34,651 bases of DNA, from contig JAWOGQ010000032.1 in NCBI GenBank assembly GCA_046496745.1, forward strand, positions 1 through 34,651, in the 5' to 3' direction. The notes beneath the pieces are model-generated. The model was not told the origin of the DNA and searched no databases. It saw nothing but the letters and a program-made list of their open reading frames with translations. The DNA comes from Candidatus Woesearchaeota archaeon (lineage in GTDB: Archaea > Nanobdellota > Nanobdellia > Woesearchaeales > JACJVW01). Positions 1-14,105 of this stretch are shown piece after piece (the first letter of the stretch is position 1; every line of letters begins with the position of its first letter). A program made the translations under genes and the position numbers.

Positions 1-143
1 AGGCGCATCACAAGGCGTGGAGGTGAGAGTTTCAAATGCATCTCTTCTTCATAATCAGAGGGGATCGCAGTATATGGTATGCCAAGCTTCTCCAGGATCT
101 CTTTTCTTCGTGGGGATGATGATGCAAGGATTATCGGGTGCAT
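1..143 (-). CDS. maf: Maf-family nucleoside triphosphate pyrophosphatase, N-terminal part (runs off window)
   Basis: Manual translation from ATG at 143 gives MHPIILASSSPRRKEILEKLGIPYTAIPSDYEEEM..., the Maf IILASxSPRR signature. TATA-like TTTTAAAA lies ~23 nt upstream. Not in the ORF track. Confidence 0.92.
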   Translation of the reverse strand, partial: MHPIILASSSPRRKEILEKLGIPYTAIPSDYEEEMHLKLSPPRLVMR

Positions 144-188
144 GTTTATGAAAAGTTGGTTCTTGTTTTAAAATCTATTGATTATAGA

Positions 189-323
189 GAGTTTTTCGAG
201 GAAATAAGCATCATCGAAGGCCAATCAGCCACCCTATATAAGGTGAAGTCCCTTACGGGGATGTCACCTTTTTTTAAAAAGGAATTCAGGCCGAAGTCGA
301 TGCCGGAATTATTCGAAAAACTC
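189..323 (-). mobile_element. MITE copy 1 (135 bp), opposite orientation to copies 2 and 3
   Basis: TIRs GAGTTTTTCGA...TCGAAAAACTC. Perfect 9-bp direct repeat GATTATAGA at 180-188 and 324-332. Reverse complement aligns end to end with 7517-7659 and 13148-13283. Confidence 0.93.
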
Positions 324-366
324 GATTATAGAAAGATAGTTAAATCACTTGATTCCTGTCACTCCT

Positions 367-1590
367 ATGAGTTTGTCAATCAAAGATGTATTGCTTAATG
401 GAGAGACGACTAACATTCTTATTGAAGGGACAAAAATTACTCATATAGGTGAGTTCAGGGATGCAGAAGAAGTAATAGATGCGAAGGGCATGGCAGCAAT
501 CCCTCCTTTCATAAATGGTCATACTCATGCTGCAATGACCTTGTTAAGGGGATTTGCAGAGGATCTTGCGCTTGCGGACTGGCTTAAGGATCATATCTGG
601 CCATTGGAAAACCAGTTGACTGAAGAGGATGTTTATGTCGGTGCAAGGCTTGCATGCCTTGAGATGATAAAGACAGGCACCACTTTCTTTTGTGATATGT
701 ATTGGCATAGTCAGGGGACGATCAGGGCTGTGAATGAGATGGGAATAAGGGCTGCTGTTTCAGCTGTATTTATAGATTTTTTTGACAAGGATACTGCAAA
801 GGAGCAGATTGAAAAAAACAAGGAATTCCTTGTTCAGACTAATGATCGGGTAACTATCATGCTCGGGCCGCATTCGGTCTATACTGTCTCAGAGGAAAGC
901 CTCAAGTGGATTGCAGGTTTTGCAAGAGAGAAAGGGCTTCTTATCCATATCCATCTGTCAGAAACAGAAAAGGAGGTGGCAGAATGTGTTGCTGAACATG
1001 GTGTGAGACCTGTACATTACCTTGATGATATCGGTTTTCTCGGAGATAATGTCTTGCTGTCACACTGCATATGGGTTGATGATTCTGAGATTGAAATACT
1101 AAAGAAAAGGGGATGCAGCATCGTGCATAATCCTGTCTCTAACATGAAGCTTTCTTCAGGCGTACTTCCTTATGAGAAACTTAAAGGGCTTCGCATGATG
1201 CTTGGGACAGACGGGTGCGCATCAAACAATAATCTTGACATGATTGAGGAGATGAAATGCGCAGGTCTATTGCAGAAATTTGCTACAGGTAATCCTCAGT
1301 CACTTCCTGCCAGAGAGATTCTCAGGATGGCAGGGGATGGCAGTTTTTTCGGGCTGGACACAGGCCTTGAGGTTGGCTCGCTTGCAGACCTTTTACTGGT
1401 TGACCTATCGCATCATTCTCTTGTGCCAGGGCATGATCTCAAATCGAATCTTGTCTATTCAGCAAGGAGTGAATGTATCGATACCACTATCTGCAATGGA
1501 CGTGTGCTCATGCGGGGCCGTGTTGTTGAAGGAGAAAAAGAGATAGTTGATGCTGCAGAAAAGACAGCTGCAAGGCTGGTTCAGGGATAG
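367..1590 (+). CDS. mtaD: Amidohydrolase, 5'-methylthioadenosine/S-adenosylhomocysteine (5'-deoxyadenosine) deaminase-like
   Basis: Motifs NGHTHAAM (HxH), HIHLSET, HNPVSNMKL, GTDG.ASNN, G.LADL. Start moved to ATG 367 (MSLSIKD), downstream of GAAAGATAGTTAAAT. Exact substrate is inferred. Confidence 0.85.
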   Translation: MSLSIKDVLLNGETTNILIEGTKITHIGEFRDAEEVIDAKGMAAIPPFINGHTHAAMTLLRGFAEDLALADWLKDHIWPLENQLTEEDVYVGARLACLEMIKTGTTFFCDMYWHSQGTIRAVNEMGIRAAVSAVFIDFFDKDTAKEQIEKNKEFLVQTNDRVTIMLGPHSVYTVSEESLKWIAGFAREKGLLIHIHLSETEKEVAECVAEHGVRPVHYLDDIGFLGDNVLLSHCIWVDDSEIEILKKRGCSIVHNPVSNMKLSSGVLPYEKLKGLRMMLGTDGCASNNNLDMIEEMKCAGLLQKFATGNPQSLPAREILRMAGDGSFFGLDTGLEVGSLADLLLVDLSHHSLVPGHDLKSNLVYSARSECIDTTICNGRVLMRGRVVEGEKEIVDAAEKTAARLVQG

Positions 1591-1595
1591 GATAC

Positions 1596-1604
1596 TTTTA
1601 TAAA
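1596..1604 (+). promoter_or_regulatory. TATA box for a leaderless aRF1 transcript
   Basis: TTTTATAAA ends 22 nt before ATG 1627; no Shine-Dalgarno. Confidence 0.6.
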
Positions 1605-1626
1605 CAATACCTTTTTCTCTAATATC

Positions 1627-2727
1627 ATGTCTCTTACTTCAAAAGAACAAAGGGAGCTGAAGAAATTCGTGCAGGAACTGGAGAATTTCAAAGGCAGAAA
1701 CACTGAGCTTGTGACAGTCTATATTCCATCAGGTTATGATATAAATAAGATCCTTACACATCTTTCACAGGAGCAGGGGACTGCTACAAACATAAAATCC
1801 ACTGCTACACGTAAGAATGTGATCGATGCACTGGAAAGAATGATACAGCATCTGAAGCTTTTCAAGCAGACACCTCCGAATGGCTTAGCATGTTTTTCAG
1901 GGAATGTTGCTGAAAGGGAAGGACAGTCAGATGTCAAGGTGTGGTCTATTGAGCCTCCTGTGGCTCTGAACACAAGGATATATCGTTGTGATAAGCAGTT
2001 CCTTCTTGATATCCTGCGTGAGATGCTTGATGTCAAGGAGATGTACGGCCTGGTTGTGATGGATCGGCGTGATGCTGATGTTGCTTATCTCAAGGGAAAA
2101 AGCATAGTGGAAGTATCAAATGCAAGTTCCAATGTCCCCGGAAAGACAAAGGCAGGTGGACAGTCTGCTGCGCGTTACGGAAGGATAAGGGAGGATGCTG
2201 CAAAGGAATTCTACAAGAAGGTTTCAGAGCTGATGAAGGATGCTTTCCTTGGGAATGATGATGTGAAGGGAATAATCGTAGGAGGACCTGGGCCTACTAA
2301 GTATGAGCTTGTTGAAAGCGGTTTTATCACAGGAAATGTGAAAGATAAGATCATCGCTATAAAGGATTTATCATATACTGGACCTTTCGGATTGCAGGAA
2401 CTTGTCGAGAGAAGTGATGATGTTCTTGCAAACGAGGAGATAATACAAGAGAAAAAATTGATGGCCCGTTTTTTTGAGCTTTTGAACAAGCAGCCAGGAT
2501 TGGTATCCTATGGTTATGAGCAATGCAAGAAACTTCTTACTATGGGTGCTGTTGATAAGCTTCTTGTATCTGATGTTGTTGATGATTCGACATATGATGA
2601 GCTGGCGACACTTGCTGAACAACTTGGTTCGGAAGTCATAATTGTATCTACAGAGACAAGGGAGGGTGTCCAGTTACGTGATATCGGCAAGATCGCTGCG
2701 ATCCTGCGGTATGAGGCTGATCTGTGA
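1627..2727 (+). CDS. prf1: Archaeal peptide chain release factor aRF1
   Basis: NIKS, YRCDKQF (YxCxxxF) and GGQS motifs; C-terminal IAAILRY. Confidence 0.97.
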   Translation: MSLTSKEQRELKKFVQELENFKGRNTELVTVYIPSGYDINKILTHLSQEQGTATNIKSTATRKNVIDALERMIQHLKLFKQTPPNGLACFSGNVAEREGQSDVKVWSIEPPVALNTRIYRCDKQFLLDILREMLDVKEMYGLVVMDRRDADVAYLKGKSIVEVSNASSNVPGKTKAGGQSAARYGRIREDAAKEFYKKVSELMKDAFLGNDDVKGIIVGGPGPTKYELVESGFITGNVKDKIIAIKDLSYTGPFGLQELVERSDDVLANEEIIQEKKLMARFFELLNKQPGLVSYGYEQCKKLLTMGAVDKLLVSDVVDDSTYDELATLAEQLGSEVIIVSTETREGVQLRDIGKIAAILRYEADL

Positions 2728-3356
2728 TGCCTGAGGATGCTTATGTATGCTTATTCGGGAGTGAACCGCCATATACCTTTGAGGTGACTTATTCTAATCG
2801 GTTCAAGCCTTTCAATGCAAGGGTCGAGAAAAGAGCAAAACATATCTGTTTTAAGCTGAGCAGGAAATGGGATGGTATAGACCCAGACATAAAGAAAGGG
2901 CTTTACCAGGAGTTGCTGGCAAAACTGTTTAGTGTGGCTGATGATACAAGATACATGGAGCTTTACCGTATATTCGTCCATAACATGCATATCGCTGCCG
3001 ATCGGATCGAAAGCGATCCTTACCTTGTAGAATCCTTCAACAGGGTCAATGAGCGCTATTTCTCTTTTGATATCGAAATGCCTAATCTCTTGTTTGGGAA
3101 GAAAACCAAACGCACATTGGGTTCATACAATTTCCATGCAGATACTCTCACTATAAGCAGTGTGCTTAAGGATGGACCTCAGGAGTTTGTGGATTATGTC
3201 ATGTATCATGAGCTTCTCCATAAATGGCTTAAGTTTGATTACACAAAAAGGAAGGCCAGGCACCATACCTCTGAGTTCAAGAGACTGGAACAACAGTTTG
3301 AGGATTATGAGGGTGTGGAGAAACGCCTGAAAAGATTTCTTAACGGGAGATCCTGA
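2727..3356 (+). CDS. Zincin metalloprotease-like protein (SprT/YgjP-DUF45-like)
   Basis: DYVMYHELLH (HExxH) followed by HHTSEF; LGSY upstream; TGATG stop/start overlap with aRF1. Confidence 0.75.
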   Translation: MPEDAYVCLFGSEPPYTFEVTYSNRFKPFNARVEKRAKHICFKLSRKWDGIDPDIKKGLYQELLAKLFSVADDTRYMELYRIFVHNMHIAADRIESDPYLVESFNRVNERYFSFDIEMPNLLFGKKTKRTLGSYNFHADTLTISSVLKDGPQEFVDYVMYHELLHKWLKFDYTKRKARHHTSEFKRLEQQFEDYEGVEKRLKRFLNGRS

Positions 3357-6300
3357 TCATCCTGAAATTTGCGTTCTTCCATGCTGTGTAGAATAATATC
3401 TTCTTTACTCTCCTGTTCTTGATGTTGTTGAGGTAGTCGTGATAGATTATGTCCCTGTCGTTGTATCCTGTTATTATAACGTTGTTCCTTACATACCTGT
3501 TCTCCTGTTGAGGGTCCTGTGCAAGGATCTGTGCTATTATGACTCCTTTTTTCATCTCTTTTTTCAGCTGTTCTATTGTCATCTCTCTTTTCTTGTATCT
3601 GGCGCCTCTCTTGATTGTCTTTTTCAACAGGTCAAGGTCGTGATGATTCTTGCTGTACTTGACATTGTCTGAGATCTCAACAGTATTGTTGAGATTTGTG
3701 CTTGCGTATGCCATGCGGATAAGGCTGTTGTTTTTTGTGGCAGGTATATCTCTTACTTTCTCCAGGAGAATCTTTTTCTTGAGCCACTTATGGACGTGCA
3801 TGTGCGCGGAAAGAAGGGTCAAGAGCAGGCTTTTCTCGTATGTTATGTTTGTTATCTTTATGAACGGGACTTTAAGGTGCTTGCTTTTTATCTTTTTCAG
3901 GAAAGGGTTTATCGCTTTGTTCAGACTATTGGAAAAAGAACTGATCTTCTCTTTTCCAGTCTGGATGCGTTCTTTGATGGTGTCTCCAAGATAGTATATG
4001 AACTCGTTTTGTCTTGCCCTTCTTTTTATGTCATCCAATAGAAGGTACCAGTACGTGAGTGCCTTGTCAACAATGTTCACATATGCGCTCTGGTTTATTG
4101 TTCCTGCTTTTATCCTTCTTACTTCATATGCGTAGCCGTAGTGGCCTCCGAAAACACCTATTATCGCAACCAGTATTATCATGATGAGGAAAGGCCATAA
4201 CCTGAATTCACTCTCTCTCTTGATCTCACCAGGTTTCTCGATACTTGTATCCACGGGTTCATCCTCTCTTCTTATTATGTTGGTGTCATCTGAACTTTCT
4301 TCTTCTTCCTCGGATATGCAGTCCTTGGTGTGAAACTCTTCTGTTGTGCCTCCCTGGAGGCTTAACCTGTATTGGCCTTTCTCCTTTGGTGTGAAGGTAA
4401 CCAGGCCTTCACTGTCAGTCATAAGAGACATCACTTCTTCATAGGTGTTATTGATTACCCTCTCTACTGTGATATCCTCCTCTTCCAAGGCGCCGCAAGC
4501 CTCCATCCCGTCGATGATAAGGCCCTGGGTCTCGCATGTAGCCCTTGGGACAAGCTTTACTGCCTTTATTGTCATGCTGTCTTCAAGGCAATTCCTGGGA
4601 TAGATTATGATTGCTGATGATTCGCTGTCATCGCAGATTCCGCAATCCGTTCTGCAGGTTTCACAGCTTTCAATATCATTGCATACATCATCTCCGCAAT
4701 AGTTTACATGTATAGTTATCTCCATCCAGTTGCTTAATCCGTACTCGTCTGTGATGGTTATGTTGATCCTGTGTGTCCCACGCTGGTCTGCTGAGGGATA
4801 GCTTCGTATGATCCCGTTATTGCTTATCTGGAATGCTGAAGAGTTTGTCCTGAAACTGATCTGGTCTCCGTCATAATCTGTGGCGTTTATGGTGAGGTTG
4901 AACTGCTCGTAATTATAGGCTTCATATTCTGTCTTATCCACATTGAAGAACGGAGGGTCGTTCACATCGATGATGTTGAAGGTCACGGTCTGGGTTACGT
5001 TATGCACCTGGTCTGATACTGTGAAAATCACGGGGACCTCTCCGCTCACAGTGGGTCCAGGGGTCCAGGAGACTGTCGCAAGAGTATTGTTGATCTTTGT
5101 TATCGAGATATTGTTGTTATCGCTTGTAAAGCTAAGCTGGTCATTGTCCACATCTGATGCTGTTATGTTGAAACGTACTTCTTCTCTTTGTTCAAGAGTC
5201 ATATCCGGGATAGGGTCGAATTCAGGAGGTGTCACTGTGAATGTGATTGTCTCTGAGAATTCCCTGACTTGTTGCCAGCCATGAATGTCCTCTGCATTGA
5301 TGCTGAAATTGACTGTCTGGTTAGCATGGTCTCCCCAGGAACCTGTTATGTTGAATGTGAATTCCTGTCCACCTTGCAGGTCTCCTGTTCCAGGGGTCAT
5401 TTCTACAGGCCCTTCCCATCCTGTGTCCCAGAGGTTGTATCTTATTGTTGGTGCATCGTCTTGTAGAGGGGATGTGTCCTGGAGTGTTACAGTTATCTGC
5501 ATGTCGCCAGTAGAGTAGAGGTTCAGGTTTGTCCATGAGGTTGATACGAAGCTTGGAGGAAGGGTATCTATTATTATCCAGTCAGAGCTTGCATTGCCTA
5601 TGTTTCCTGCTGAATCCTCTCCCCATACATAAACAGACACGTTTCCCTGGGTGAAGACACTCATCTGGGTTTCTGTCCCTGTTTCGACAAACCCCTGGGT
5701 TGTCATCTGGTTGTTTGATGTGTTATAGTAATAACGGGATATGTTTGAGATGTCATTGAAGCCTGACCATGATATGTCAAGGAGTGTTGATGTTGCATAC
5801 GTTGAACCATTCTCGATAGAGACGCTTGCGCTCTGAGGCGAGGGAGGGGTGGTATCATAATAAAGCACATGTGGTGTATCTTCGCTTAGCACCCCGTTCA
5901 TGGTGTTGTTGCACTGGAAATAGAATGTGTTCTCACCTTCCTGGTAGAAGGGGATGTCTGCAGAATGGGTCTGTGTACCTGTGGTGTCCATGCTGTTCTT
6001 TGCATCAAAAGGTGTGTTGTTTGCTGTAGCATACCTGCATTCTGCCGGAAGGGTGGTTTCAAAGCTGATTGTCTGGTCGGTATTGAACCATCCGGTAGGT
6101 GTTATGTTCTGTATCGATACCGACCCCTCGTTGACCCTGAAGGTACGGGTCTCTGATTCTGTGACAAGTGTGGGTGTTAAAAAAGGATCATGTATCTGGA
6201 CCTTCCAGTAATACGTGTCATCAGTAAGGGCCTGGGCGCTTGTCAGGGTGTGGTTCTCCTCTGAATTGGTTATGTTTATCTCCGGGCTTGAGAAATCCGG

Positions 6301-6816
6301 GTCATTGTCTATTATAAGCCTGTGGATGGCAGTACTTCCCTGGTCATAGGAAAAATCCCATATGAACTGGGTCATGTTTGGCTGGATGCTGTCGTTTCCC
6401 GGTGAATGCAAGCGGATGACATATTCCATATCCAAAGCGATGGGTGCGTCGAAAGCTGAAGGTGTAGGTGAAGGGGGTGGATGTATTGTCACGTTTTCAG
6501 GCAAAGCCTGGGTCGTAACAGGGGGATTTGCCCATGCGCGGGAACGGATGATATAATCTGCGTCATCAGGCACAGTCTGGCTGAATGTAATTATTGTCAT
6601 GCCCCATGTTGCATTTATGACTGTTGAGTTCTGGGTCCTGCTCTCGATAAGGGTACCGTTTGGATAGAACAGTTCAGCCTGTACCTCTGCATCCCCTCCT
6701 CCATGGCCTGTGGTGTTGACCATCGCGTTTATTGTTGCAGGAGCTCCAGCTGCAGCTAGGGAGAAGATGCTTAACATGAGCATCAGTACAAGTCCTTTTA
6801 TTGCAGGGTGTCCCAT
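3340..6816 (-). CDS. 1,158-aa single-pass surface protein: Ig/cadherin-like ectodomain, Cys-rich module, TM helix, cytoplasmic C39-like domain
   Basis: Signal peptide; DTTPP/DTLPP Ig linkers; cadherin-like ASDVDND, DVNDPP, ATDYDGD; CGDDVCNDIESCETCRTDCGIC; TM LWPFLIMIILVAIIGVFGG; basic tail with LKVP...VIITGYN...IIYHD...AW. Confidence 0.85.
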   Translation of the reverse strand: MGHPAIKGLVLMLMLSIFSLAAAGAPATINAMVNTTGHGGGDAEVQAELFYPNGTLIESRTQNSTVINATWGMTIITFSQTVPDDADYIIRSRAWANPPVTTQALPENVTIHPPPSPTPSAFDAPIALDMEYVIRLHSPGNDSIQPNMTQFIWDFSYDQGSTAIHRLIIDNDPDFSSPEINITNSEENHTLTSAQALTDDTYYWKVQIHDPFLTPTLVTESETRTFRVNEGSVSIQNITPTGWFNTDQTISFETTLPAECRYATANNTPFDAKNSMDTTGTQTHSADIPFYQEGENTFYFQCNNTMNGVLSEDTPHVLYYDTTPPSPQSASVSIENGSTYATSTLLDISWSGFNDISNISRYYYNTSNNQMTTQGFVETGTETQMSVFTQGNVSVYVWGEDSAGNIGNASSDWIIIDTLPPSFVSTSWTNLNLYSTGDMQITVTLQDTSPLQDDAPTIRYNLWDTGWEGPVEMTPGTGDLQGGQEFTFNITGSWGDHANQTVNFSINAEDIHGWQQVREFSETITFTVTPPEFDPIPDMTLEQREEVRFNITASDVDNDQLSFTSDNNNISITKINNTLATVSWTPGPTVSGEVPVIFTVSDQVHNVTQTVTFNIIDVNDPPFFNVDKTEYEAYNYEQFNLTINATDYDGDQISFRTNSSAFQISNNGIIRSYPSADQRGTHRINITITDEYGLSNWMEITIHVNYCGDDVCNDIESCETCRTDCGICDDSESSAIIIYPRNCLEDSMTIKAVKLVPRATCETQGLIIDGMEACGALEEEDITVERVINNTYEEVMSLMTDSEGLVTFTPKEKGQYRLSLQGGTTEEFHTKDCISEEEEESSDDTNIIRREDEPVDTSIEKPGEIKRESEFRLWPFLIMIILVAIIGVFGGHYGYAYEVRRIKAGTINQSAYVNIVDKALTYWYLLLDDIKRRARQNEFIYYLGDTIKERIQTGKEKISSFSNSLNKAINPFLKKIKSKHLKVPFIKITNITYEKSLLLTLLSAHMHVHKWLKKKILLEKVRDIPATKNNSLIRMAYASTNLNNTVEISDNVKYSKNHHDLDLLKKTIKRGARYKKREMTIEQLKKEMKKGVIIAQILAQDPQQENRYVRNNVIITGYNDRDIIYHDYLNNIKNRRVKKILFYTAWKNANFRMIRISR

Positions 6817-7361
6817 AGTCTTAGGCTGAGTTCTTTTGTAAGCTTGTTCTCTTCCACAGCATGGAGGTCTATAATTGTCTGTATAGGTGAGGTGATATTT
6901 TTGGTTATGATGATGCTTTTTGGTTCCTTGTGAAGGATGATTTTTGTCTGGCCAGGGTCAAGACGGTTCAGGGTTGTTATGATGTTGGGGTTTGCGTAGG
7001 CGTGAAGCTCGTCAGCAATCTCGAATCCCTGGATCTCTTCCAGGGCGCTGTGCAGGCAGAGGGTAGCTTCTTTTTTCAGGATCTTTCTGGCTTCTTCCTT
7101 TGTGCAGTTGATCTCGATTGTACGGTCTTCTTCAATTACATGCTGGTCAGCAATGTGCCTTATGAGTTTGTTTGGGGCGATGAGAAGGTATCGGCCTGTC
7201 TCTCTTTTTGCAATGCCTTTTTGGATGAGCCATTTTGTTATGGTATTGACCCTTCCAATCGATACCTTGCTTTTTTCTGATATAGTGCTCTGGGTGAAAG
7301 AAGGGGTCTGTAAAATAGCATCAAGGATCATCAAGGTCTTTTTGCTGGTGAGTCTTTTCAT
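6798..7361 (-). CDS. Winged-helix DNA-binding protein, AbiEi-like architecture
   Basis: N-terminal wHTH (TQSTISEKSKVSIGRVNTITKWL); C-terminal TSPIQTIIDL resembles AbiEi-type C-domains; overlaps the downstream start by 19 nt. Confidence 0.7.
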   Translation of the reverse strand: MKRLTSKKTLMILDAILQTPSFTQSTISEKSKVSIGRVNTITKWLIQKGIAKRETGRYLLIAPNKLIRHIADQHVIEEDRTIEINCTKEEARKILKKEATLCLHSALEEIQGFEIADELHAYANPNIITTLNRLDPGQTKIILHKEPKSIIITKNITSPIQTIIDLHAVEENKLTKELSLRLWDTLQ

Positions 7362-7516
7362 TTATTCATGAAATTTTCACTTTTTTATAGTTTTTTTAGT
7401 TTTTCCTAAGTTATTTGTTTTTATAATATTAATTTAGTTTTTTGTTTATTTACCTGGATTATACTGCTTTTTTCTTTTTTATTGAAAAGAGAATTTAAAA
7501 TTCTTTCGTTTTCTTG

Positions 7517-7659
7517 GAGTTTTTCGAATAATTCCGGCATCGACTTCGGCCTGATTTCTTTTTTAAAAAGAGGTGACATCCCCGTAAGGGACTTCCCCCT
7601 TTCACCTTATATAGAGATACTAATCGGCCTTCGATGATGCTTATTTTTTCGAAAAACTC
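7517..7659 (+). mobile_element. MITE copy 2 (143 bp)
   Basis: Same TIRs. Perfect 9-bp TSD GTTTTCTTG at 7508-7516 and 7660-7668. Overlaps the 3' end of the regulator gene. Confidence 0.93.
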
Positions 7660-8273
7660 GTTTTCTTGCCTTTATACAGGACTTTCTTTTCAAAAGGGCA
7701 TTCTTTCAGAAAATCACTCAGGCCTCTTGTTACCTGGGAGTCCCAGTTGCTTAGAAGGAGTTCCACCTCATCGATGGGGATATTGGTCTTCAGGGCGATC
7801 TCATGCGTTGTGAAGTATTTGTCGGGGTTGTTGTCCAGGAAATCGATAATTTTCTTGGTCTTTTTGGAGTCGACCCAGAGGCCCTGGAAGAAGCGCTGCA
7901 GCCTGGATTTTTGTGGGCTGTTGCGTGTTATGCAAAGGACGTTTGATTTGATTATCCTTTGCTTGTTTCCTTCATAGATGACCTTGGTCTCGATGAGACC
8001 TGCTTCCTCCAGCCGTTTCAGGTTCTCATGAATGGTGGAGGAGGAATGGCCGATCTCTTTTTTCAGGGAGGTGGCATTGTGATTATCGTTTCCTGAGAGT
8101 GTTATCAGTATCTTGCGGGGGATATCCTGGGTCCAGCTTTTTTCTATCTGGTATTTGGTCTCTGAGGGGATTGTGGTGGGAAGAATCTCTATTATCTTTT
8201 TTGTGCGCTGGTGATAATATACGCAGATTTCCATGGACGGTTTTCTTTGGATTTCATATATTAATCTTTCCAT
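7641..8273 (-). CDS. ArsR-like winged-helix transcriptional regulator, probably with a second HTH
   Basis: RKILITL...ATSLKKEIGHSSSTIHENLKRLEEAGLI; second helix pair TTHEIALKTNIPIDEVELLL; divergent from the fla operon. Confidence 0.8.
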   Translation of the reverse strand: MERLIYEIQRKPSMEICVYYHQRTKKIIEILPTTIPSETKYQIEKSWTQDIPRKILITLSGNDNHNATSLKKEIGHSSSTIHENLKRLEEAGLIETKVIYEGNKQRIIKSNVLCITRNSPQKSRLQRFFQGLWVDSKKTKKIIDFLDNNPDKYFTTHEIALKTNIPIDEVELLLSNWDSQVTRGLSDFLKECPFEKKVLYKGKKTSFSKK

Positions 8274-8317
8274 TTTTCGGTAATACCGAAAAACTGAAAA
8301 ACCGAAATATTTATATA
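8273..8317 (+). promoter_or_regulatory. Operator-like palindrome plus BRE/TATA of the fla operon
   Basis: TTTTTCGGTA-A-TACCGAAAAA at 8273-8293; ACCGAAATA-TTTATATA at 8301-8317. Confidence 0.65.
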
Positions 8318-8388
8318 TATTTTAGTAGGGGAATACATATATAGCAGATTACATAAAGCACTCTTAATATACAAGAGGGTATACTAAA

Positions 8389-8850
8389 ATGGGTTTTGGA
8401 ACTATCGCTGCAAATATCATAATGTTTATCTCGGTATTGATACTTTCGACTGCCGTGCTTGGTGTTTTCAAATCAACCATAGACAGTTCGGTCGGTTCTT
8501 TCCAGTCGCGTTCTGATGAGATATCCAATTCGATAAGGACAGATATCACTATACAAAGTGCAGTCTATGACAATGTGAGCGATGAGATTGTTGTCACGCT
8601 GAAGAATACTGGTGAGACTGTGCTTGACCCTCAATATATGGATGTCTATGTTGATGGTTTCTTTATCCCCAGGAATGCTGCAAACCGGACAGTCCGTGTC
8701 CTTCCGTCAACCGATACCCGTAATTCAGGGCTTTTTGACCCGCGGGAAGTAGTTGAGATCGTAGTAGGACAGGAGCTTGATGAGAGCCATCATTATGTGG
8801 CTGTGGCTACCCAGTACGGGACAAGGACAGAGGAATTGATAACCCAGTAA
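8389..8850 (+). CDS. Archaellum accessory/stator protein, FlaF/FlaG (ArlF/ArlG) family
   Basis: N-terminal TM MGFGTIAANIIMFI; RTDITI, LKNTG, VYVDG, VATQYG; directly upstream of flaH. F versus G cannot be resolved by eye. Confidence 0.8.
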   Translation: MGFGTIAANIIMFISVLILSTAVLGVFKSTIDSSVGSFQSRSDEISNSIRTDITIQSAVYDNVSDEIVVTLKNTGETVLDPQYMDVYVDGFFIPRNAANRTVRVLPSTDTRNSGLFDPREVVEIVVGQELDESHHYVAVATQYGTRTEELITQ

Positions 8851-8851
8851 A

Positions 8852-9595
8852 ATGGTCTTAAACCAGGAATATCTAGAGGAGAAGGAAAGGGAAGCGCACG
8901 CGTATTACCATGATATAAACCTGCAGCGTGATGAGCTTTCCATGAATCTTGGAGGGGGTATTCCGAAAAAATCACTTATGCTTGCCGTGGGAGAGGATGG
9001 GGCTGGTAAAAGTATACTTGCCCAACGCTTGTTGTATAGTTTTGTGCGTAACAAGGCTACGGTGAGTTATATCAGTTCTGAGCTAAATACCATCTCTTTT
9101 GTTGAGCAGATGGAGTCAATGGATTATGATATCAAGTATGACCTTCTGAATGGAAGGGTCCTGTTCATACCCATGTTTCCTGTCATGGGAAGTACTACGC
9201 CTTCGAATGATTTCATGACCAGGCTTTTGAAGACAAAGGAGATATTTGAGAAGGATATCATAATCTTTGATACCTTGTCTTTTCTGATGATAAGGAATAA
9301 TATCACCCAGGATGAATGCTATAACCTTATCAACATGCTCAAACGGATGACATCCCTTGGGAAGACCATACTTTTCATGGTGGACCCGAACCATCTTAAT
9401 GATACGATGCTTTCACTTTTGAAGTCTGTGTCTGATATATTTGTCAATCTCGCGATCCGTTCTTTTGCAGGAAATGTGGTTAGGGTTATAAATATCGTCA
9501 GGTTCAAGAGGCCACAGGGTGAGTTCCAGGCAAATATACCATTCAGGGTTGAGCCAGGAAAAGGACTTGCAATAGAGATCGCAAGCCTTGATTAA
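8852..9595 (+). CDS. flaH: Archaellum RecA/KaiC-like ATP-binding protein FlaH (ArlH)
   Basis: Walker A GEDGAGKS, Walker B IIIFDTLS, C-terminal FRVEPGKGLAIEIAS; adjacent to flaI. Confidence 0.92.
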   Translation: MVLNQEYLEEKEREAHAYYHDINLQRDELSMNLGGGIPKKSLMLAVGEDGAGKSILAQRLLYSFVRNKATVSYISSELNTISFVEQMESMDYDIKYDLLNGRVLFIPMFPVMGSTTPSNDFMTRLLKTKEIFEKDIIIFDTLSFLMIRNNITQDECYNLINMLKRMTSLGKTILFMVDPNHLNDTMLSLLKSVSDIFVNLAIRSFAGNVVRVINIVRFKRPQGEFQANIPFRVEPGKGLAIEIASLD

Positions 9596-9608
9596 AAAGA
9601 GGTAGAAC

Positions 9609-11273
9609 ATGCGCGGAAAGATAACTGAAGAGCAAAAGACTTTTGAGAGCGCACAGAGGAATTATCCTCATTTCCGGAAATATGTACAGGAGATAACAGC
9701 TTCACTTGGAACTCCTAATTATTATCTGGATTTCGATTTTTTCAAGTATTATCGTGAAGAGTTCATGAACCAGATCGATAAGGAAGGGGCTAATCTTATC
9801 TATCCGGTGGATGACCTATTGTTTATCCATATCCTCAAATTCCCTGGAGAGGCATATCAATACATAGTGATTGAGCCTGAACTTGATGATGAGAGCAAAA
9901 GGCTGTATGAAAAGGTTCTTGATAAGATGATAGATCTTGCATCACAGTTGCCTACCCCTGATCATACTACTGATATAAAACCTGTTCTCATGGAGTTGCT
10001 TGATAAGTGTGTCGAACCCGGAAGGCCAAAACGGCTGGTTGGAGTGAATCTTGGTTCAAAGCTTCCTGTCACGCAGGACCAGTACAGGATGCTCAAGTAT
10101 CATCTCCTGAGGGAGCGTGTTGGGTATTCAAAGCTTGAGCCGCTTTTCAAGGACCCTTACCTGGAAGATATCCATTGTGTGGGTGTGGGCAATCTTGCTG
10201 CTGTCCACAAGATTTTCGGCGTAGTGAGGATGAGCCTGAAGTTTCCGACAGATGTTGAGCTTGATAAGTATATCCTGGACGCTTCCGAGCGTGTGGAGAG
10301 GCCGGTGAGTGACAGCAGGCCTGTGGTAGACGCGATAATGCCAGACGGGTCCAGGGTTAACTATATCTATGGCCGGGAGATCTCCCGGGAAGGTTCAAGT
10401 TTCACCATAAGGAAATTCGCGGATGTGCCTGTGAGCATAGCTGATATCGTCTATTATCAAACCCTCACCCCAAAGATTGCAGCGTACCTCTGGCTATGCC
10501 TGGAGAATGGGATGAACTGCTTTGTCTGCGGAGAGACTGCTTCGGGTAAGACGACTACGCTTAATGCGATGAGCGCGTTCATAAAGCCTGATGCAAAGAT
10601 CTATACTGTAGAGAACACTGCAGAGGTGACAATGCCTCATGACATATGGCAGCATCTTGTGACGCGTGAGGCTGGAAAGGATTCTGATGTGACTTTGTTC
10701 ACTCTGCTTATTGCAGCCCTGAGGTCGCGTCCGAATTACATAATAGTTGGTGAGATAAGGGGTGAAGAGGGAAATATCGCTTTCCAGGCAATGCAGACAG
10801 GGCACCCATGCCTTTCCACATTCCACGCCGGTTCTGTGCACTCTATGATCCAGCGTCTTACAGGACATCCTATCAATGTTCCTATCGCCTTTATCGATAA
10901 CCTGAATGTGGTTCTTATCCAGCAGGCAGTTACTGTGAACAACAGGCTGGTCAGGCGTGTTACTTCCATCTCAGAGATTGAGAGGTATTATGATGCGGAG
11001 AATAAGGTCATAACCCGGAAGGTGTTCCTCTGGGATTCAAAGAAGGATGAACATAGGTTTACTGGTTATTACAACAGTTATATCCTGGAAAAGAAGATTG
11101 CGTCGCAATTGGGATACCAGGACCCAAAGGAAATATACGAGGAGCTTGAGCTTCGGGAGAAGATAATCCAGAAGATTGTAGATCGGAAGATCCTCAATTA
11201 TTACAAGGTGTTTGACATCATCAAGAAATTTTCGATAGGTGGTGTGGAGTCTCTACCGTTCGAGCTTGATTGA
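9609..11273 (+). CDS. flaI: Archaellum motor ATPase FlaI (ArlI)
   Basis: DPYLEDI, FTIRKF, GETASGKTT, RPNYIIVGEIRG, AMQTGH, STFHA. Confidence 0.95.
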   Translation: MRGKITEEQKTFESAQRNYPHFRKYVQEITASLGTPNYYLDFDFFKYYREEFMNQIDKEGANLIYPVDDLLFIHILKFPGEAYQYIVIEPELDDESKRLYEKVLDKMIDLASQLPTPDHTTDIKPVLMELLDKCVEPGRPKRLVGVNLGSKLPVTQDQYRMLKYHLLRERVGYSKLEPLFKDPYLEDIHCVGVGNLAAVHKIFGVVRMSLKFPTDVELDKYILDASERVERPVSDSRPVVDAIMPDGSRVNYIYGREISREGSSFTIRKFADVPVSIADIVYYQTLTPKIAAYLWLCLENGMNCFVCGETASGKTTTLNAMSAFIKPDAKIYTVENTAEVTMPHDIWQHLVTREAGKDSDVTLFTLLIAALRSRPNYIIVGEIRGEEGNIAFQAMQTGHPCLSTFHAGSVHSMIQRLTGHPINVPIAFIDNLNVVLIQQAVTVNNRLVRRVTSISEIERYYDAENKVITRKVFLWDSKKDEHRFTGYYNSYILEKKIASQLGYQDPKEIYEELELREKIIQKIVDRKILNYYKVFDIIKKFSIGGVESLPFELD

Positions 11274-11275
11274 TA

Positions 11276-12946
11276 ATGGAGAGATACATAAAGAGGGCGG
11301 GATTCAAGTCCATCAGTCAATTCGCAGTCAAGGTAGTCATGCCTCTGCTTATACTCTCGCTTGTACTTTTTTTCTCTATCCTTCTTTTCCTTCCACTACC
11401 CTTTTATGCTGCATATGTTTTCTTGTTCCTTGGTTTTACAGCAATATTCATGGTACCTTACATGCTTTATGAGCGGAAGCGTATCAATATAAACGAAAAC
11501 ATCCATCTTTTCATAACATATTGCGGAACAATCTCAACAATCGACCTTGACCGTAAGACTTTTTTCAGCAAAATCGCAGAGAATGATGATTACGGAGAGA
11601 TCTCAAAGCTATCAAACAAGATCCTGTACTTTGCTAAGGCATGGAACCTGGGATTTGCACAGACCGCAAGGAAGATGGGAAGGTTCTCGGCCTCAAGAAT
11701 ATTTGCTGATTTCCTGGACAGGTTTGCTGCAGCCCTTGATTTCGGGCAGGAGCTGGAGACCTTCATGCGTGATGAACAGAGTGCTGTGCTTGATGATTAT
11801 TCTACAATGTACAAGGAATCTCTCAATAATATTGGCATGTTAAGGGAGGCATTTATCGCAGTCACAATATCTCTTGCTTTTGGCATAAGCACTGCGTTGC
11901 TCCTTCCTTTACTGATGGGCGTCTCCATTGTTGTTGCGATACAGTGGTCTTTACTTATACTGTTCTTTATTGATATGTGCCTGCTAGTCTTCGTGAATGT
12001 ATTCATCCCTAATGATGATTTATGCCATAACATGAAGGTTAAGGATGCGGGTACACGGAAGCTTCATAAATGGAGCATGATACTTATCCCAATCTCTCTC
12101 AATATTGCGGCCTTCCTTTTTTTCATGGGGTGGTTCACTTTTCTATTCAATATTGCCATTGCAATAACCCCTTTGATGTATCTTGGTTTCCTTGCAGTGC
12201 AGGTTGAAAATACAGTATTCAAGAGGGACAAGGAATTTCCTTCATTCATAAGAGCGCTTGGGGCGACAATCTATGCAAGACAGGGTGGAGTCCCTTCGAG
12301 TCTTGAGGCTTTGCAGGTGCATGATTTCGGGATACTGCAGGATATCGTGAGCAATCTTTACAAGCGCCTGAAGATAGGTTCTGATAAGCTCAAGAGCTGG
12401 TATTATTTTGCGGGTGAGTCTGGTTCAAAGCTCATAAGCCGTTTTGTGACAATATTCCATGAGTCAATATATCTTGGAGGGCATGCTCAGAAGATTGGTG
12501 AGATGATAAGCGATAATTTCCAGGATCTCTTGTCTTTGAGAAAATTGAGGCAGCAACAGGCATCGTCTTTGAAAGGGGCTTTGTATGGGGCTCTCATAGG
12601 GTTTATCGCTACTATCTATATCTCTGTTTCAATCACAAATCTTCTTACTCAGATGTTCTCTGAAGCATGGGGGGATACACTTTCCCAGGGTTCCATGTCG
12701 GGGCTTATATCATCAATCATACCAAGCATGCCTGAGGTCGATACAGCCCGCCTGAGCCTTTATCTTGGTCTTACAGTGCTCTTGCATTCATTTGTGTCTT
12801 CCCTTGTAATCAAGATAGTGGATGGTGGGAACAGGTTTGCAATGCTTTTTGATTTCATTGCCATGGTCTGGATAGGAGCTGTGCTTTCCTGGCTGGTGCC
12901 ATTGATAGCATCAAACATGTTTGCTGGCAGTATGGGTCTTGGTTAA
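11276..12946 (+). CDS. flaJ: Archaellum platform membrane protein FlaJ (ArlJ)
   Basis: Polytopic ~556-aa protein with two GspF-like cytoplasmic domains (FADFLDRFA; RDKEFPSFIRALG); follows flaI. Confidence 0.92.
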   Translation: MERYIKRAGFKSISQFAVKVVMPLLILSLVLFFSILLFLPLPFYAAYVFLFLGFTAIFMVPYMLYERKRININENIHLFITYCGTISTIDLDRKTFFSKIAENDDYGEISKLSNKILYFAKAWNLGFAQTARKMGRFSASRIFADFLDRFAAALDFGQELETFMRDEQSAVLDDYSTMYKESLNNIGMLREAFIAVTISLAFGISTALLLPLLMGVSIVVAIQWSLLILFFIDMCLLVFVNVFIPNDDLCHNMKVKDAGTRKLHKWSMILIPISLNIAAFLFFMGWFTFLFNIAIAITPLMYLGFLAVQVENTVFKRDKEFPSFIRALGATIYARQGGVPSSLEALQVHDFGILQDIVSNLYKRLKIGSDKLKSWYYFAGESGSKLISRFVTIFHESIYLGGHAQKIGEMISDNFQDLLSLRKLRQQQASSLKGALYGALIGFIATIYISVSITNLLTQMFSEAWGDTLSQGSMSGLISSIIPSMPEVDTARLSLYLGLTVLLHSFVSSLVIKIVDGGNRFAMLFDFIAMVWIGAVLSWLVPLIASNMFAGSMGLG

Positions 12947-12959
12947 ACCTGAGAAAAGG

Positions 12960-13048
12960 TGGGCCCGCGGAGATTTGAACTCCGGACCACTCGATCTCTG
13001 ATGAAAGCATTATCAGTCGAGCACTCCACCAGGCTAAGCTACGGGCCC
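12960..13048 (-). tRNA. tRNA-Ile(GAT) with a 15-nt intron at position 37/38 (12996-13010)
   Basis: Acceptor GGGCCCG/CGGGCCC-A; anticodon arm CTCGA-CTGATA^A-TCGAG; T-loop GTTCAAATC; intron ATGCTTTCATCAGAG forms a bulge-helix-bulge; upstream GAAAAC-TTTAAAAA. Confidence 0.95.
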
Positions 13049-13147
13049 TTGGAATTCAAAAATAGGGAGCGATTTTTAAAGTTTTCTTATTTTAGTTGTT
13101 ATATTATGTAAGCAAATCCATGTGATTAAGTCTGGATAAAAGCAATG

Positions 13148-13283
13148 GAGTTTTTCGAATAATTCCGGCATCGACCTGTTTTCTTTTTTAAAAAAGGTGA
13201 CACGTTGCACACAACACCTCCCCCTGTCAACTTATATAGGGTGGCTGATTGGCCTTCGATGATGCTTATTTCCTCGAAAACTC
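13148..13283 (+). mobile_element. MITE copy 3 (136 bp)
   Basis: Left TIR GAGTTTTTCGA; right TIR TCGAAAACTC (one A short). Perfect 9-bp TSD AAAGCAATG at 13139-13147 and 13284-13292. Confidence 0.92.
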
Positions 13284-13328
13284 AAAGCAATGGAAATGTT
13301 TATATATATATTATCTTGGAGAAGAAGC

Positions 13329-14084
13329 ATGGATCTTGCCATAATCTCACTGATTTTCAGGATACCGACAATATTTCTTGCTATCCTTATGGGTTATCTG
13401 GCTTATCAGTTATTCGTCCTGACAAAGGGTGCTACCAAGGGCTGGATGTATCTTTCGATCGGAGGTTTCTCTTTGTTCATGTGGGCTGCATCAATCGTGC
13501 TTTTTAGTGTTATTTTCCCTCATGAGACCCTCAGGTACTTGACTGGAGCTTTCTTTCTTTTCATGATGGCCATATTCCAGCCATTGGCTTATACAAAGCT
13601 TGCTGAATCTTTTCATGCCAGGCTTCCACGATGGTGGAATGTCCCAACTTTGCTTGCTCTCATAGGCTTGGTGGTATTCACGCTCATGGCTTATGGTAGC
13701 ATGGGCAGTTTTGGCTTGCAAAACTTCCTTACTGTTGCTCATTTCACTCTTGCAATATGCATGCTTTTTGCTTTGCTTCCAAGCTACAGGCTGATGAAGG
13801 AAACAAAGAAATCACCCTGGATATTCTCTTTCCTGTTCTGCCTGGTAGTGGCTCTTGGGATGAATGTAGGTCAATACTATAACAATTGCTGCAATGAGAC
13901 AAGCGAGTTCTCGGAAAATGAGGTATGCGCCTATGACCTGGATTATCTTGGTATCTATGAGGCTCCTTGCAATGCAGGTGTGCTTAGTGTTGCAAGGTTC
14001 TATCAATTGTTCCTGCTAGTTGGGATAATACTTGGAGATGTTGCTTTTTTCAAGCTCTGGCGCGGTCTCAAAGCATTTAAATAG
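13329..14084 (+). CDS. Hypothetical ~7-TM membrane protein with a Cys-rich loop
   Basis: About seven hydrophobic segments. Start set at ATG 13329 (MDLAII), downstream of TTTATATA at 13299. Confidence 0.75.
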   Translation: MDLAIISLIFRIPTIFLAILMGYLAYQLFVLTKGATKGWMYLSIGGFSLFMWAASIVLFSVIFPHETLRYLTGAFFLFMMAIFQPLAYTKLAESFHARLPRWWNVPTLLALIGLVVFTLMAYGSMGSFGLQNFLTVAHFTLAICMLFALLPSYRLMKETKKSPWIFSFLFCLVVALGMNVGQYYNNCCNETSEFSENEVCAYDLDYLGIYEAPCNAGVLSVARFYQLFLLVGIILGDVAFFKLWRGLKAFK

Positions 14085-14105
14085 TAATATCTTATTCACT
14101 TTCTC

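Follow-up and report, generated by a model that had tools for sequence, protein, structure and literature searches.

The 34,651-nt stretch of DNA analyzed here (the window) is contig C93 of the source genome G000, a Candidatus Woesearchaeota archaeon represented by a 1.33-Mb assembly of 107 contigs that is 96% complete by marker genes. It carries three copies of a transposable element of the miniature inverted-repeat type (MITE) that occupies 46 unique loci in this genome, 37 of which lie at a nearly fixed, short distance from an archaeal core promoter. The best overall explanation of our data is that the MITE family is mobilized in trans by the DDE transposase of an insertion sequence (IS) of approximately 1.0 kb with GAGTTTTTCGAATAA ends, a reading to which we give a probability of roughly 0.8. 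That the repeats form a MITE family is well supported. The family is unremarkable as a MITE, and its hosts (DPANN/Woesearchaeota) have been studied little; what stands out is the placement. All of the data are metagenome-assembled genomes and contigs, which break, or are possibly chimeric, at the repeat itself.

The three window copies were mapped to positions 189-323 (copy 1; 135 bp, with the minus strand in canonical orientation), 7517-7659 (copy 2; 143 bp, plus strand), and 13148-13283 (copy 3; 136 bp, plus strand, belonging to the subfamily with a GTTG-CACA-CAAC inner hairpin). Each is bounded by an identical 9-bp target-site duplication (TSD): GATTATAGA at 180-188 and 324-332, GTTTTCTTG at 7508-7516 and 7660-7668, and AAAGCAATG at 13139-13147 and 13284-13292, respectively. 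The copies align end to end with a mean column identity of 86%, and their ends read GAGTTTTTCGA and TCGAAAAACTC, except for the right end of copy 3, which has one A fewer (TCGAAAACTC). The terminal 11-mer, with at most one mismatch, occurred six times in the window against an expectation of 0.42, and none of 100 shuffles reached six.

A BLASTN search of the 1.33-Mb assembly with the three window copies identified 50 loci, 49 with both termini and one truncated (C79). Three non-independent loci were removed, namely C9 and C69, which are contig-end repeats of the flanks of other copies, and C67, which is a second haplotype; C49 and C50 have one flank in common and were both counted, giving the final set of 46 loci and a density of about 35 copies per Mb. 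Copy length ranges from 132 to 185 bp, and no open reading frame (ORF) is present. The sequence GAGTTTTTCGA(A) was present at both ends in 49 of the 50 loci; most copies have a perfect terminal inverted repeat (TIR) of 12 bp (GAGTTTTTCGAA), with an imperfect continuation to about 34 bp. The 9-bp TSD was perfect at 24 of the 46 loci (25 after the boundary of C100 had been corrected) and contained one mismatch at seven and two mismatches at three. Thus, 34 of the 46 loci had a TSD with no more than two mismatches, compared with 2 of 315 controls in which the left 9-mer was compared with right-flank 9-mers shifted by 12-30 nt. The 9-bp target sequences differ between loci and are unrelated to one another.

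The initial annotation, which was made from the window alone, had described three copies at these positions (the first reversed), each with a perfect 9-bp TSD, as a non-autonomous and probably high-copy element moved by a DDE-type enzyme; the census agrees with it on the copies, their number, and the TSDs, and the partner IS described below has the same TIR and a 9-bp TSD. The 11-bp TIR that it proposed holds for the window copies apart from the one A missing in copy 3, but the perfect TIR is 12 bp in most copies.

Full-length copies of the MITE were confined to the genus, that is, to G000, G001 (six matches), and G002 (18 matches); searches of 38 other relatives yielded at most short partial matches. 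In the sister genome G001, the element was absent from all three window loci on the syntenic contig C23. At the copy-3 locus, AAATCAATG occurs once in G001, and the left flank with its TSD and the right flank with its TSD each align to it; at the copy-1 locus, G001 shows one TATAGA without the element. The copy-2 locus has just one 9-mer (GATTTTTTG) in G002, and in G001 it again lacks the MITE. Since G001 is empty at the orthologous loci, the three insertions postdate the split from this genome. G002 contains an independent MITE about 60 nt from the copy-3 site, in the same tRNA-side intergenic region, with the TSD TGTGACTTC/TGTGACGTC.

Two further sites bear on the history of these loci. At the position orthologous to window 7508-7516, G001 carries 18 nt (GGTTTATTTTACTTTTTG; contig C23, about 14554-14571, L061), which could represent the decayed remains of a double TSD after excision or else a 9-nt indel of unrelated origin. 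On contig C29 of G000 (13278-13313), GACATTTAG, 18 bp of the left element end (GAGTTTTTCGAATAATTC), and a second GACATTTAG are followed by AAAACA TTTAAATA; this TSD-flanked stub at a canonical promoter-adjacent site may be the footprint of a deletion or an excision.

The proposal of recent transposition in the initial annotation stands insofar as the insertions postdate the G001 split, and the empty sites whose search it had advised were found in G001 at all three loci and in G002 at the copy-2 locus. Other observations weigh against recent activity. Pairwise identity of the copies has a median of only 80% (maximum, 97%). At first count, 12 of the 46 copies had no TSD, either because there were more than two mismatches or because the flank was not long enough; for one of them, the boundary had been misplaced, and another two or three could be fitted only after a shift made by eye. 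No contig that skips a copy was found over positions 1-14500 of the window in the assemblies of four public sequencing runs (X1, X2, X3, and X5), in which contigs drop rare variants. The contigs of these runs break at the copies; one contig of run X3, from an independent study, crosses the left junction of copy 3. The contigs of the four runs thus gave no sign of ongoing movement.

The initial annotation had not noted the placement of the copies. In G000, 33 of the 46 copies overlapped no ORF of at least 100 aa, though such ORFs cover 92% of the genome; in about 10 cases, the adjacent ORF overlapped the element by up to 19 nt or ended within 6 nt of it. Simple ORF-based criteria were used to set gene starts and to delimit intergenic space. 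The distance from the element end to the facing start codon was 44-47 nt at 12 of 32 gene-facing sides, and exactly 45 nt at eight. We pooled 91 flanks, read outward from the element with the TSD as positions 1-9, and obtained the consensus R10 A11 A12 A13 N N T16 T17 T18 W W A21 W A23. This corresponds to an archaeal B recognition element (BRE) plus TATA box (RAAA-NN-TTTAWATA) starting right after the TSD.

A TATA-like sequence began at +15 to +19 on at least one side of 37 of the 46 insertions, compared with 9.0% of random intergenic sites and 1.6% of random genome sites. The start was at +16 in 21 flanks, at +17 in six, and at +18 in nine, and fell within +16 to +19 in 39 of the 91. Counted per flank, the TATA-like sequence was found in 45% (null, 4.3%), RAAA in 32% (null, 2.7%), and the TATA-like sequence given RAAA in 69% (null, 8.9%). 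When insertions were drawn uniformly within their own intergenic regions, 6.5 promoter-adjacent sites were expected against the 37 of 46 observed; in the 33 regions with at least 60 alternative sites, the corresponding values were 2.0 and 26, and none of 200,000 simulations reached the observed number. The promoter was on the right side of the element in 14 cases, on the left in 19, and on both in four. The flank opposite the promoter carried almost no signal; A13, for example, was present in 40 of 41 flanks on the promoter side and in 22 of 50 on the other side.

Genome-wide, TATA-like motifs peaked 30 to 28 nt upstream of the ATGs of 1,139 long ORFs, indicating that the genes are mostly leaderless, and the 45-nt spacing between element and gene agrees with this value (45 - 15 = 30). 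Because the promoters are also present at the empty sites of G001, they belong to the target DNA and are not cargo of the element. A reading by eye in which the MITE supplies neighboring genes with its own TATA box and a Shine-Dalgarno-like GAGGTGA was not favored, as the orientation of the element to the facing promoter is random and a resident promoter is found at the empty sites.

A scan of 401 genomes of the order for the terminal 15-mer gave four further genomes with several hits (G188, G249, G231, and G075). A complete IS, bounded on both sides by the TIR and containing a frame of 320 codons, occupies positions 1-1027 of G188 contig C103. In G001, ten contig ends start with GAGTTTTTCGAATAA and continue in two ways that are not those of the MITE (seven of end A and three of end B); the left end of the G188 IS resembles end B and its right end resembles end A. 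Two of these contigs, C43 and C72, were assigned to the two sides of one insertion because both starts carry the 9-bp GGTTCAGAC. The 15-bp TIR of the MITE is identical in the long element of G001 and in the complete 1.0-kb ISs of G188 and L051-L053.

Complete ISs occur in other families of the same archaeal order and are mostly 1002-1039 bp long (range, 974-1039 bp). L052 is a 1004-bp copy with the TSD TGTTGGTAA, contigs C11 and C25 of G188 have ATGTCACCC in common, and L091, L100, and L104 have perfect 9-bp TSDs; the perfect TSDs at six IS insertions read GGTTCAGAC, ATGTCACCC, TGTTGGTAA, CTTCTAATA, CAAAAAACC, and TGTAAATTC. A transposase gene bounded by the same TIR, for which the initial annotation had recommended looking, is thus found in relatives (G188 and L052) and not in G000, and its statement that the window contains no transposase extends to the whole assembly with respect to the partner family. 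Outside the MITEs, the termini were represented in G000 by an 18-bp remnant only.

Right ends could be located for 25 IS copies, and in 16 of these the transposase frame (at least 300 codons) contained no stop codon within the element. In these 16 copies, the open frame runs through the right TIR and ends 5-227 nt into the flank (L050, L052, L053, and the metagenome loci L092-L112), so that the C-terminus of the transposase varies with the site of insertion. A third family of the order (G075, C27:25758-25966 and C43:9811-10017; L047 and L048) has elements of about 200 bp that also end in the terminal 15-mer. On G001 contig C3 (1-366; L011), end A of the long element is inserted beside the C-terminal part of a different DDE_Tnp_1 gene, with TTTAAAT at +16. 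A candidate IS end on G002 contig C40 (GATTTTTTCGAATAAT) was discarded since the neighboring ORFs encode a PHP-like protein, a TP_methylase, and eIF-1A, and no transposase. The exact 29-mer of G001 end A had no match in metagenome contigs, and a tblastn search of plasmids with the transposase was negative up to an E value of 1.

The G188 IS encodes one protein (P0001/P0002) of about 319 aa, the family being typically about 315 aa long. We found 140 relatives in a set of 5.8 billion proteins, none of them informatively named and most on contigs of 1.0-1.5 kb, and 117 cluster representatives at E values up to 1e-3 among 1.84 billion. A precomputed match to PF01609 was recorded for 20 of the 120 relatives listed. 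The commonest match of the family was NCBIfam IS5_2, which we take to represent the IS903 group: it was found in 17 of 34 members (best E value, 5.3e-11) and was the top model for 31 of 34 more distant relatives, with scores of up to 88.8 bits. Residues D123, D197, and E255 are invariant in 34 transposase sequences. The AlphaFold model (pLDDT, 85.4) has a predicted RNase H-like core, in which strand 1 carries the first DDE residue, the second comes after strand 4, and the third is in the helix that follows. The best PDB matches of the model in Foldseek were the DDE transposases ISCth4 and Tn5 (TMq 0.46-0.49); a TMq of only 0.41 for the top match, ISCth4 of the IS256 family, reflects a generic DDE fold. 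A profile search against PDB sequences gave no match.

Within the genus, the IS256 profile PF00872 matched none of the three genomes (G000, G001, and G002), and PF01609 matched G001 only, with no match in G000. The DDE_Tnp_1 loci of G001 (C7 and C65) had no GAGTTTTTCGA ends within two mismatches at plausible positions. On these comparisons, the partner is classed as a predicted divergent IS5-like element on the margin of the IS5 family, similar to IS903 in its size and TSD, and not as an IS256 element. Of the families that the initial annotation had suggested, the IS4/IS5-like assignment was retained (DDE_Tnp_1, with IS5_2 as the nearest NCBIfam model), and that to IS256 was not.

The promoter-adjacent placement recurred at the IS ends of several lineages, as scored per end by a TATA-like start at +15 to +19. 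The pattern was found at two of three IS ends in G188, three of six in G249, six of nine in G231, five of 12 ends in G001 (10 of the IS and two of the MITE), and 22 of 47 ends on metagenome contigs with IS copies; where both flanks were present on the metagenome contigs, seven of 14 insertions had it on at least one side. A proportion of about half of the IS ends is what one promoter per insertion predicts. Since the ends of the parent IS repeat it, promoter adjacency is, clear exceptions aside, a property of the transposition system in several lineages.

In the window, each of the three copies has a promoter directly at a TSD. Copy 1 lies between two divergent promoters. On its left, a BRE-like AATAGA (179-174) and a TATA-like TTTTAAAA (173-166) on the minus strand make up the promoter (166-179) of a Maf-like gene (Pfam Maf, E value 2.7e-9), whose ATG at 143-141 is 45 nt from the copy. 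On its right, the plus-strand promoter at 333-346 (BRE-like AAGATA and TATA-like GTTAAATC) precedes an amidohydrolase gene (Amidohydro_1, E value 7.5e-65) with its ATG at 367, 43 nt from the copy. The left TSD of copy 2 directly abuts a minus-strand promoter at 7494-7507 (BRE-like GAAAGA at 7507-7502 and TATA-like ATTTTAAA at 7501-7494), which faces the winged helix-turn-helix gene at 6798-7361 (minus strand) and whose motif is also conserved at the empty site of G001. On the other side of copy 2, the last codons and the stop codon (7641-7643) of a helix-turn-helix gene (7641-8273, minus strand) come from the right element end and the right TSD. Copy 3 is followed by a plus-strand promoter at 13293-13306 (BRE-like GAAATG and TATA box TTTATATA) and an ORF at 13329-14084, the ATG of which, at 13329, is 45 nt past the element end. 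An ATG inside the TSD of copy 3 was rejected as the start of this gene, as the promoter comes after the TSD and the ATG at 13329 fits the genome-wide spacing.

The intergenic region of copy 3 is bordered on its other side by a tRNA gene on the minus strand (12960-13048; Rfam tRNA, 54 bits). The Rfam match is 89 nt long against a 71-position model, and the gene is therefore probably intron-bearing. Contig C67 (2608-3328) and window positions 1-713 represent two haplotypes that are 95% identical. C67 carries a variant MITE copy at the copy-1 site. The coding parts of the two haplotypes are nearly the same, and nearly all of the differences lie within the MITE copy or the adjoining 40 nt of promoter sequence on its right; they may reflect strain variation or mis-threading of the assembly through the repeat.

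The MITE copies are end-to-end imperfect palindromes. Single-strand hairpins gave z values of -6.0, -6.05, -5.3, and -2.7 in four folds, copy 2 folded as RNA gave an end-to-end hairpin with z = -6.0, and runs of T5-T6 were read directly at both ends. An Rfam search returned no family matching any of the three window copies. The copies are mosaics of a few alternative modules, with two inner hairpins whose stems are fully compensated (TCCC..GGGA and GTTG..CAAC); the copy at C81:115-299 holds both, together with a third palindromic insert of about 40 nt. Such mosaics suggest that copies have recombined or that there were several source elements. In two further families of the order (L008, G037:C6; L007, G038:C54), the central MITE motif CATCCCCGTAAGGGAC.TCCCCCT recurs inside a palindromic, MITE-like element of another kind, the termini of which differ. 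The inner hairpin module seems to be common to unrelated elements.

We consider the partner IS transposase most likely to be the enzyme that moves the MITE, and several points count against this assignment. No transposase of the partner family was found in G000 by tblastn and profile searches of the window and the whole assembly, and neither the G000 nor the G002 assembly contains a full-length IS. The interior of the long G001 element is unassembled, so that what ties it to the transposase is the resemblance between its ends and those of the complete ISs in G188 and G231. The identity between MITE and IS extends over 18 nt on the left and 11-12 nt on the right, with nothing internal. P0001 matched Pfam DDE_Tnp_1 at an E value of 1e-3 and 19.3 bits, below the cut-off of 23, and the NCBIfam IS5 equivalog cut-off of 140 was not reached (at most 88.8 bits). 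With regard to TSDs outside the genome, the IS flank pairs on metagenome contigs agreed with at most one mismatch in only 3 of 17 cases, probably owing to chimeric assembly across the repeat. One could suppose that a different transposase moves the MITE, such as another DDE_Tnp_1 protein (for example, that of G001 C7 or C65) or one from an unassembled element, and that the IS ends are alike by descent. The other DDE_Tnp_1 genes of G001, the lack of an assembled transposase of the partner family (A2) in all three genomes of the genus, and the short match at the right end would fit this supposition; however, the other G001 loci lack the MITE-like ends, and the long element of that genome has the identical 15-bp TIR, a 9-bp TSD, and the same promoter-adjacent placement as the MITE. 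We regard a different transposase as improbable. Still less credible is a host regulatory or structural element (a terminator similar to repetitive extragenic palindromic [REP] sequences, or an insulator) or a small-RNA gene that is kept before promoters for its function and spread by recombination. The strong hairpin, the two fully compensated versions of the inner stem, the terminal T runs, and the recurrence of the central motif in the unrelated element of G037 and G038 would suit such a role, but the locus-specific 9-bp duplications, the empty orthologous sites, the ends in common with a transposase-bearing IS, the absence of an Rfam match, and the random orientation to the promoter count against it. 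We found no support for spread without transposition, and the MITE may nonetheless have acquired a domesticated side function.

With regard to the placement, we lean towards the view that the machinery actively picks the promoter-adjacent position, rather than that selection merely keeps insertions there. Against such targeting, 9 of the 46 insertions in G000 lack the promoter pattern, the regular expression used for the TATA box is loose, and the definition of intergenic space depends on ORFs of at least 100 aa. The pattern was weak at the MITE ends of G002 (5 of 23) and in the set of loci from genome contigs (one of seven ends), and it was missing from the six ends of the 200-bp elements of G075. 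Selection after insertion in a compact genome may contribute, and the sparing of genes implies that it must also act. It is doubtful, however, that the same IS-family MITE inserts nearly anywhere and that survival of the non-damaging insertions is all that produces the pattern. The ORF coverage of 92%, the approximately 10 copies that abut the 3' ends of genes, the replacement of the last codons of a gene by copy 2, and the exceptions in G002 and G075 speak for such a process, but it would set a one-sided limit and not a sharp peak at +16 to +18; no such peak is predicted where hundreds of other non-coding positions are available. The excess of promoter-adjacent insertions in regions with many alternative sites, some of which have 130-1,280 nt free on the other side, and the recurrence of this spacing where full-length ISs end, both in three further families of the order and on metagenome contigs, also argue against selection alone.

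According to the mechanism that we favor, the transposase would act in trans on the MITE ends and make 9-bp staggered cuts, by either a cut-and-paste or a copy-out route. Target choice could combine an IS903-like RAA(A) preference at the cut with recognition of the TATA region or of DNA bent by TATA-binding protein (TBP) and transcription factor B (TFB). In the observed insertions, the 9-bp target lies immediately upstream of the BRE and TATA box, and the promoter can face either element end. Among ISs with 9-bp TSDs, IS903 has been studied most. It is reported to generate 9-bp TSDs and to prefer the target WTTYA-N9-TRAAW (PMC2577343, Table 1); the RAAA beside the cut may accordingly be an inherited flank preference that happens to be met by the BRE. 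Something beyond this preference is needed to account for a one-sided TATA signal at a fixed distance of 6 nt. Insertion just outside the BRE would leave both the promoter and the upstream gene intact and would thus provide a safe haven in a genome of which approximately 92% is covered by ORFs. A stronger version, in which the archaeal core promoter is recognized by the transposase itself, through its sequence or through the bent state of DNA bound by TBP/TFB, and the 9-bp stagger stops precisely at the BRE's upstream edge, is put forward tentatively, and we judge it less likely to hold than to fail. If it is correct, this would be the first promoter-directed DNA transposon described in archaea and a prokaryotic counterpart of the safe-haven targeting of Ty3 through TFIIIB, and the MITE copies would be natural markers of active promoters in uncultured DPANN genomes.

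In about four of five MITE copies, and at about half of the parent IS ends in several lineages, the TSD touches the BRE of a leaderless gene. If the transposase picks this position, the element can reach approximately 35 copies per Mb in a 1.3-Mb genome with genes unbroken; the system would then allow promoter recognition to be tested in a simple DDE enzyme and would provide free promoter annotation in organisms that cannot be grown. If selection alone is responsible, the copies amount to a precise map of the dispensable intergenic bases in such genomes.

The MITE resembles those known from archaea and bacteria, including the SM elements of Sulfolobus, the MITEs of Halobacterium and Haloquadratum, the Correia elements of Neisseria, and MITEEc1 of Escherichia coli, which in the passages describing them are also short and ORF-less, with IS-type TIRs, TSDs, many copies, mostly intergenic locations, and a capacity to form hairpins (PMC10969869, PMC11602168). 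It differs in that no fixed-distance, promoter-adjacent placement is described in those passages. The relevant part of the review lists few archaeal MITEs and does not mention TATA boxes or a target-site preference (PMC10969869), and that of the census records a Woesearchaea genome with 105 MITEs per Mb, noting the MITE density of the group in bulk (PMC11602168); the family described here may already be listed in the supplements of the latter (PMC11602168). Among the texts returned by our literature searches, as far as these were accessible, we found no paper describing an archaeal IS or MITE targeted to promoters.

The transposase of IS903 has about 310 aa, and the partner IS is likewise a single-ORF DDE element of about 1.0 kb with a 9-bp TSD. 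Both systems are also A-rich just outside the TSD, WTTYA-N9-TRAAW in the tabulated IS903 target corresponding to R10 A11 A12 A13 here. In contrast, the RAAA register is shifted by one base relative to TRAAW, and the target signal is one-sided and reaches a TATA box 6 nt from the TSD, unlike the short palindrome tabulated for IS903. The partner TIR has a different sequence, its hosts are DPANN archaea, its proteins fall below the IS5 equivalog cut-off, and its transposase frame is without a stop inside the element in 16 of 25 copies.

Promoter-directed integration is known from the yeast element Ty3, which inserts at RNA polymerase III start sites via TFIIIB, from TRE5-A of Dictyostelium, which inserts upstream of tRNA genes, and from Tf1 of Schizosaccharomyces pombe, which inserts at RNA polymerase II promoters. 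The TBP and Brf1/TFIIB components of these targets have archaeal TBP and TFB as homologues. The likeness appears to lie in the outcome only, a fixed short distance from a core promoter with genes spared in a dense genome; those are long terminal repeat (LTR) or non-LTR retroelements, whereas the present system consists of a DNA transposon and its MITE, so that the comparison is one of analogy, and protein-protein tethering here would be hypothetical. Closer to bacterial ISs, IS1397 and ISKpn1 target the intergenic REP repeats and bacterial interspersed mosaic elements. They are similar in that target choice is confined to short intergenic signals; however, a host repeat is recognized there, whereas here the 9-bp targets are unrelated to one another and what they have in common is a generic promoter architecture.

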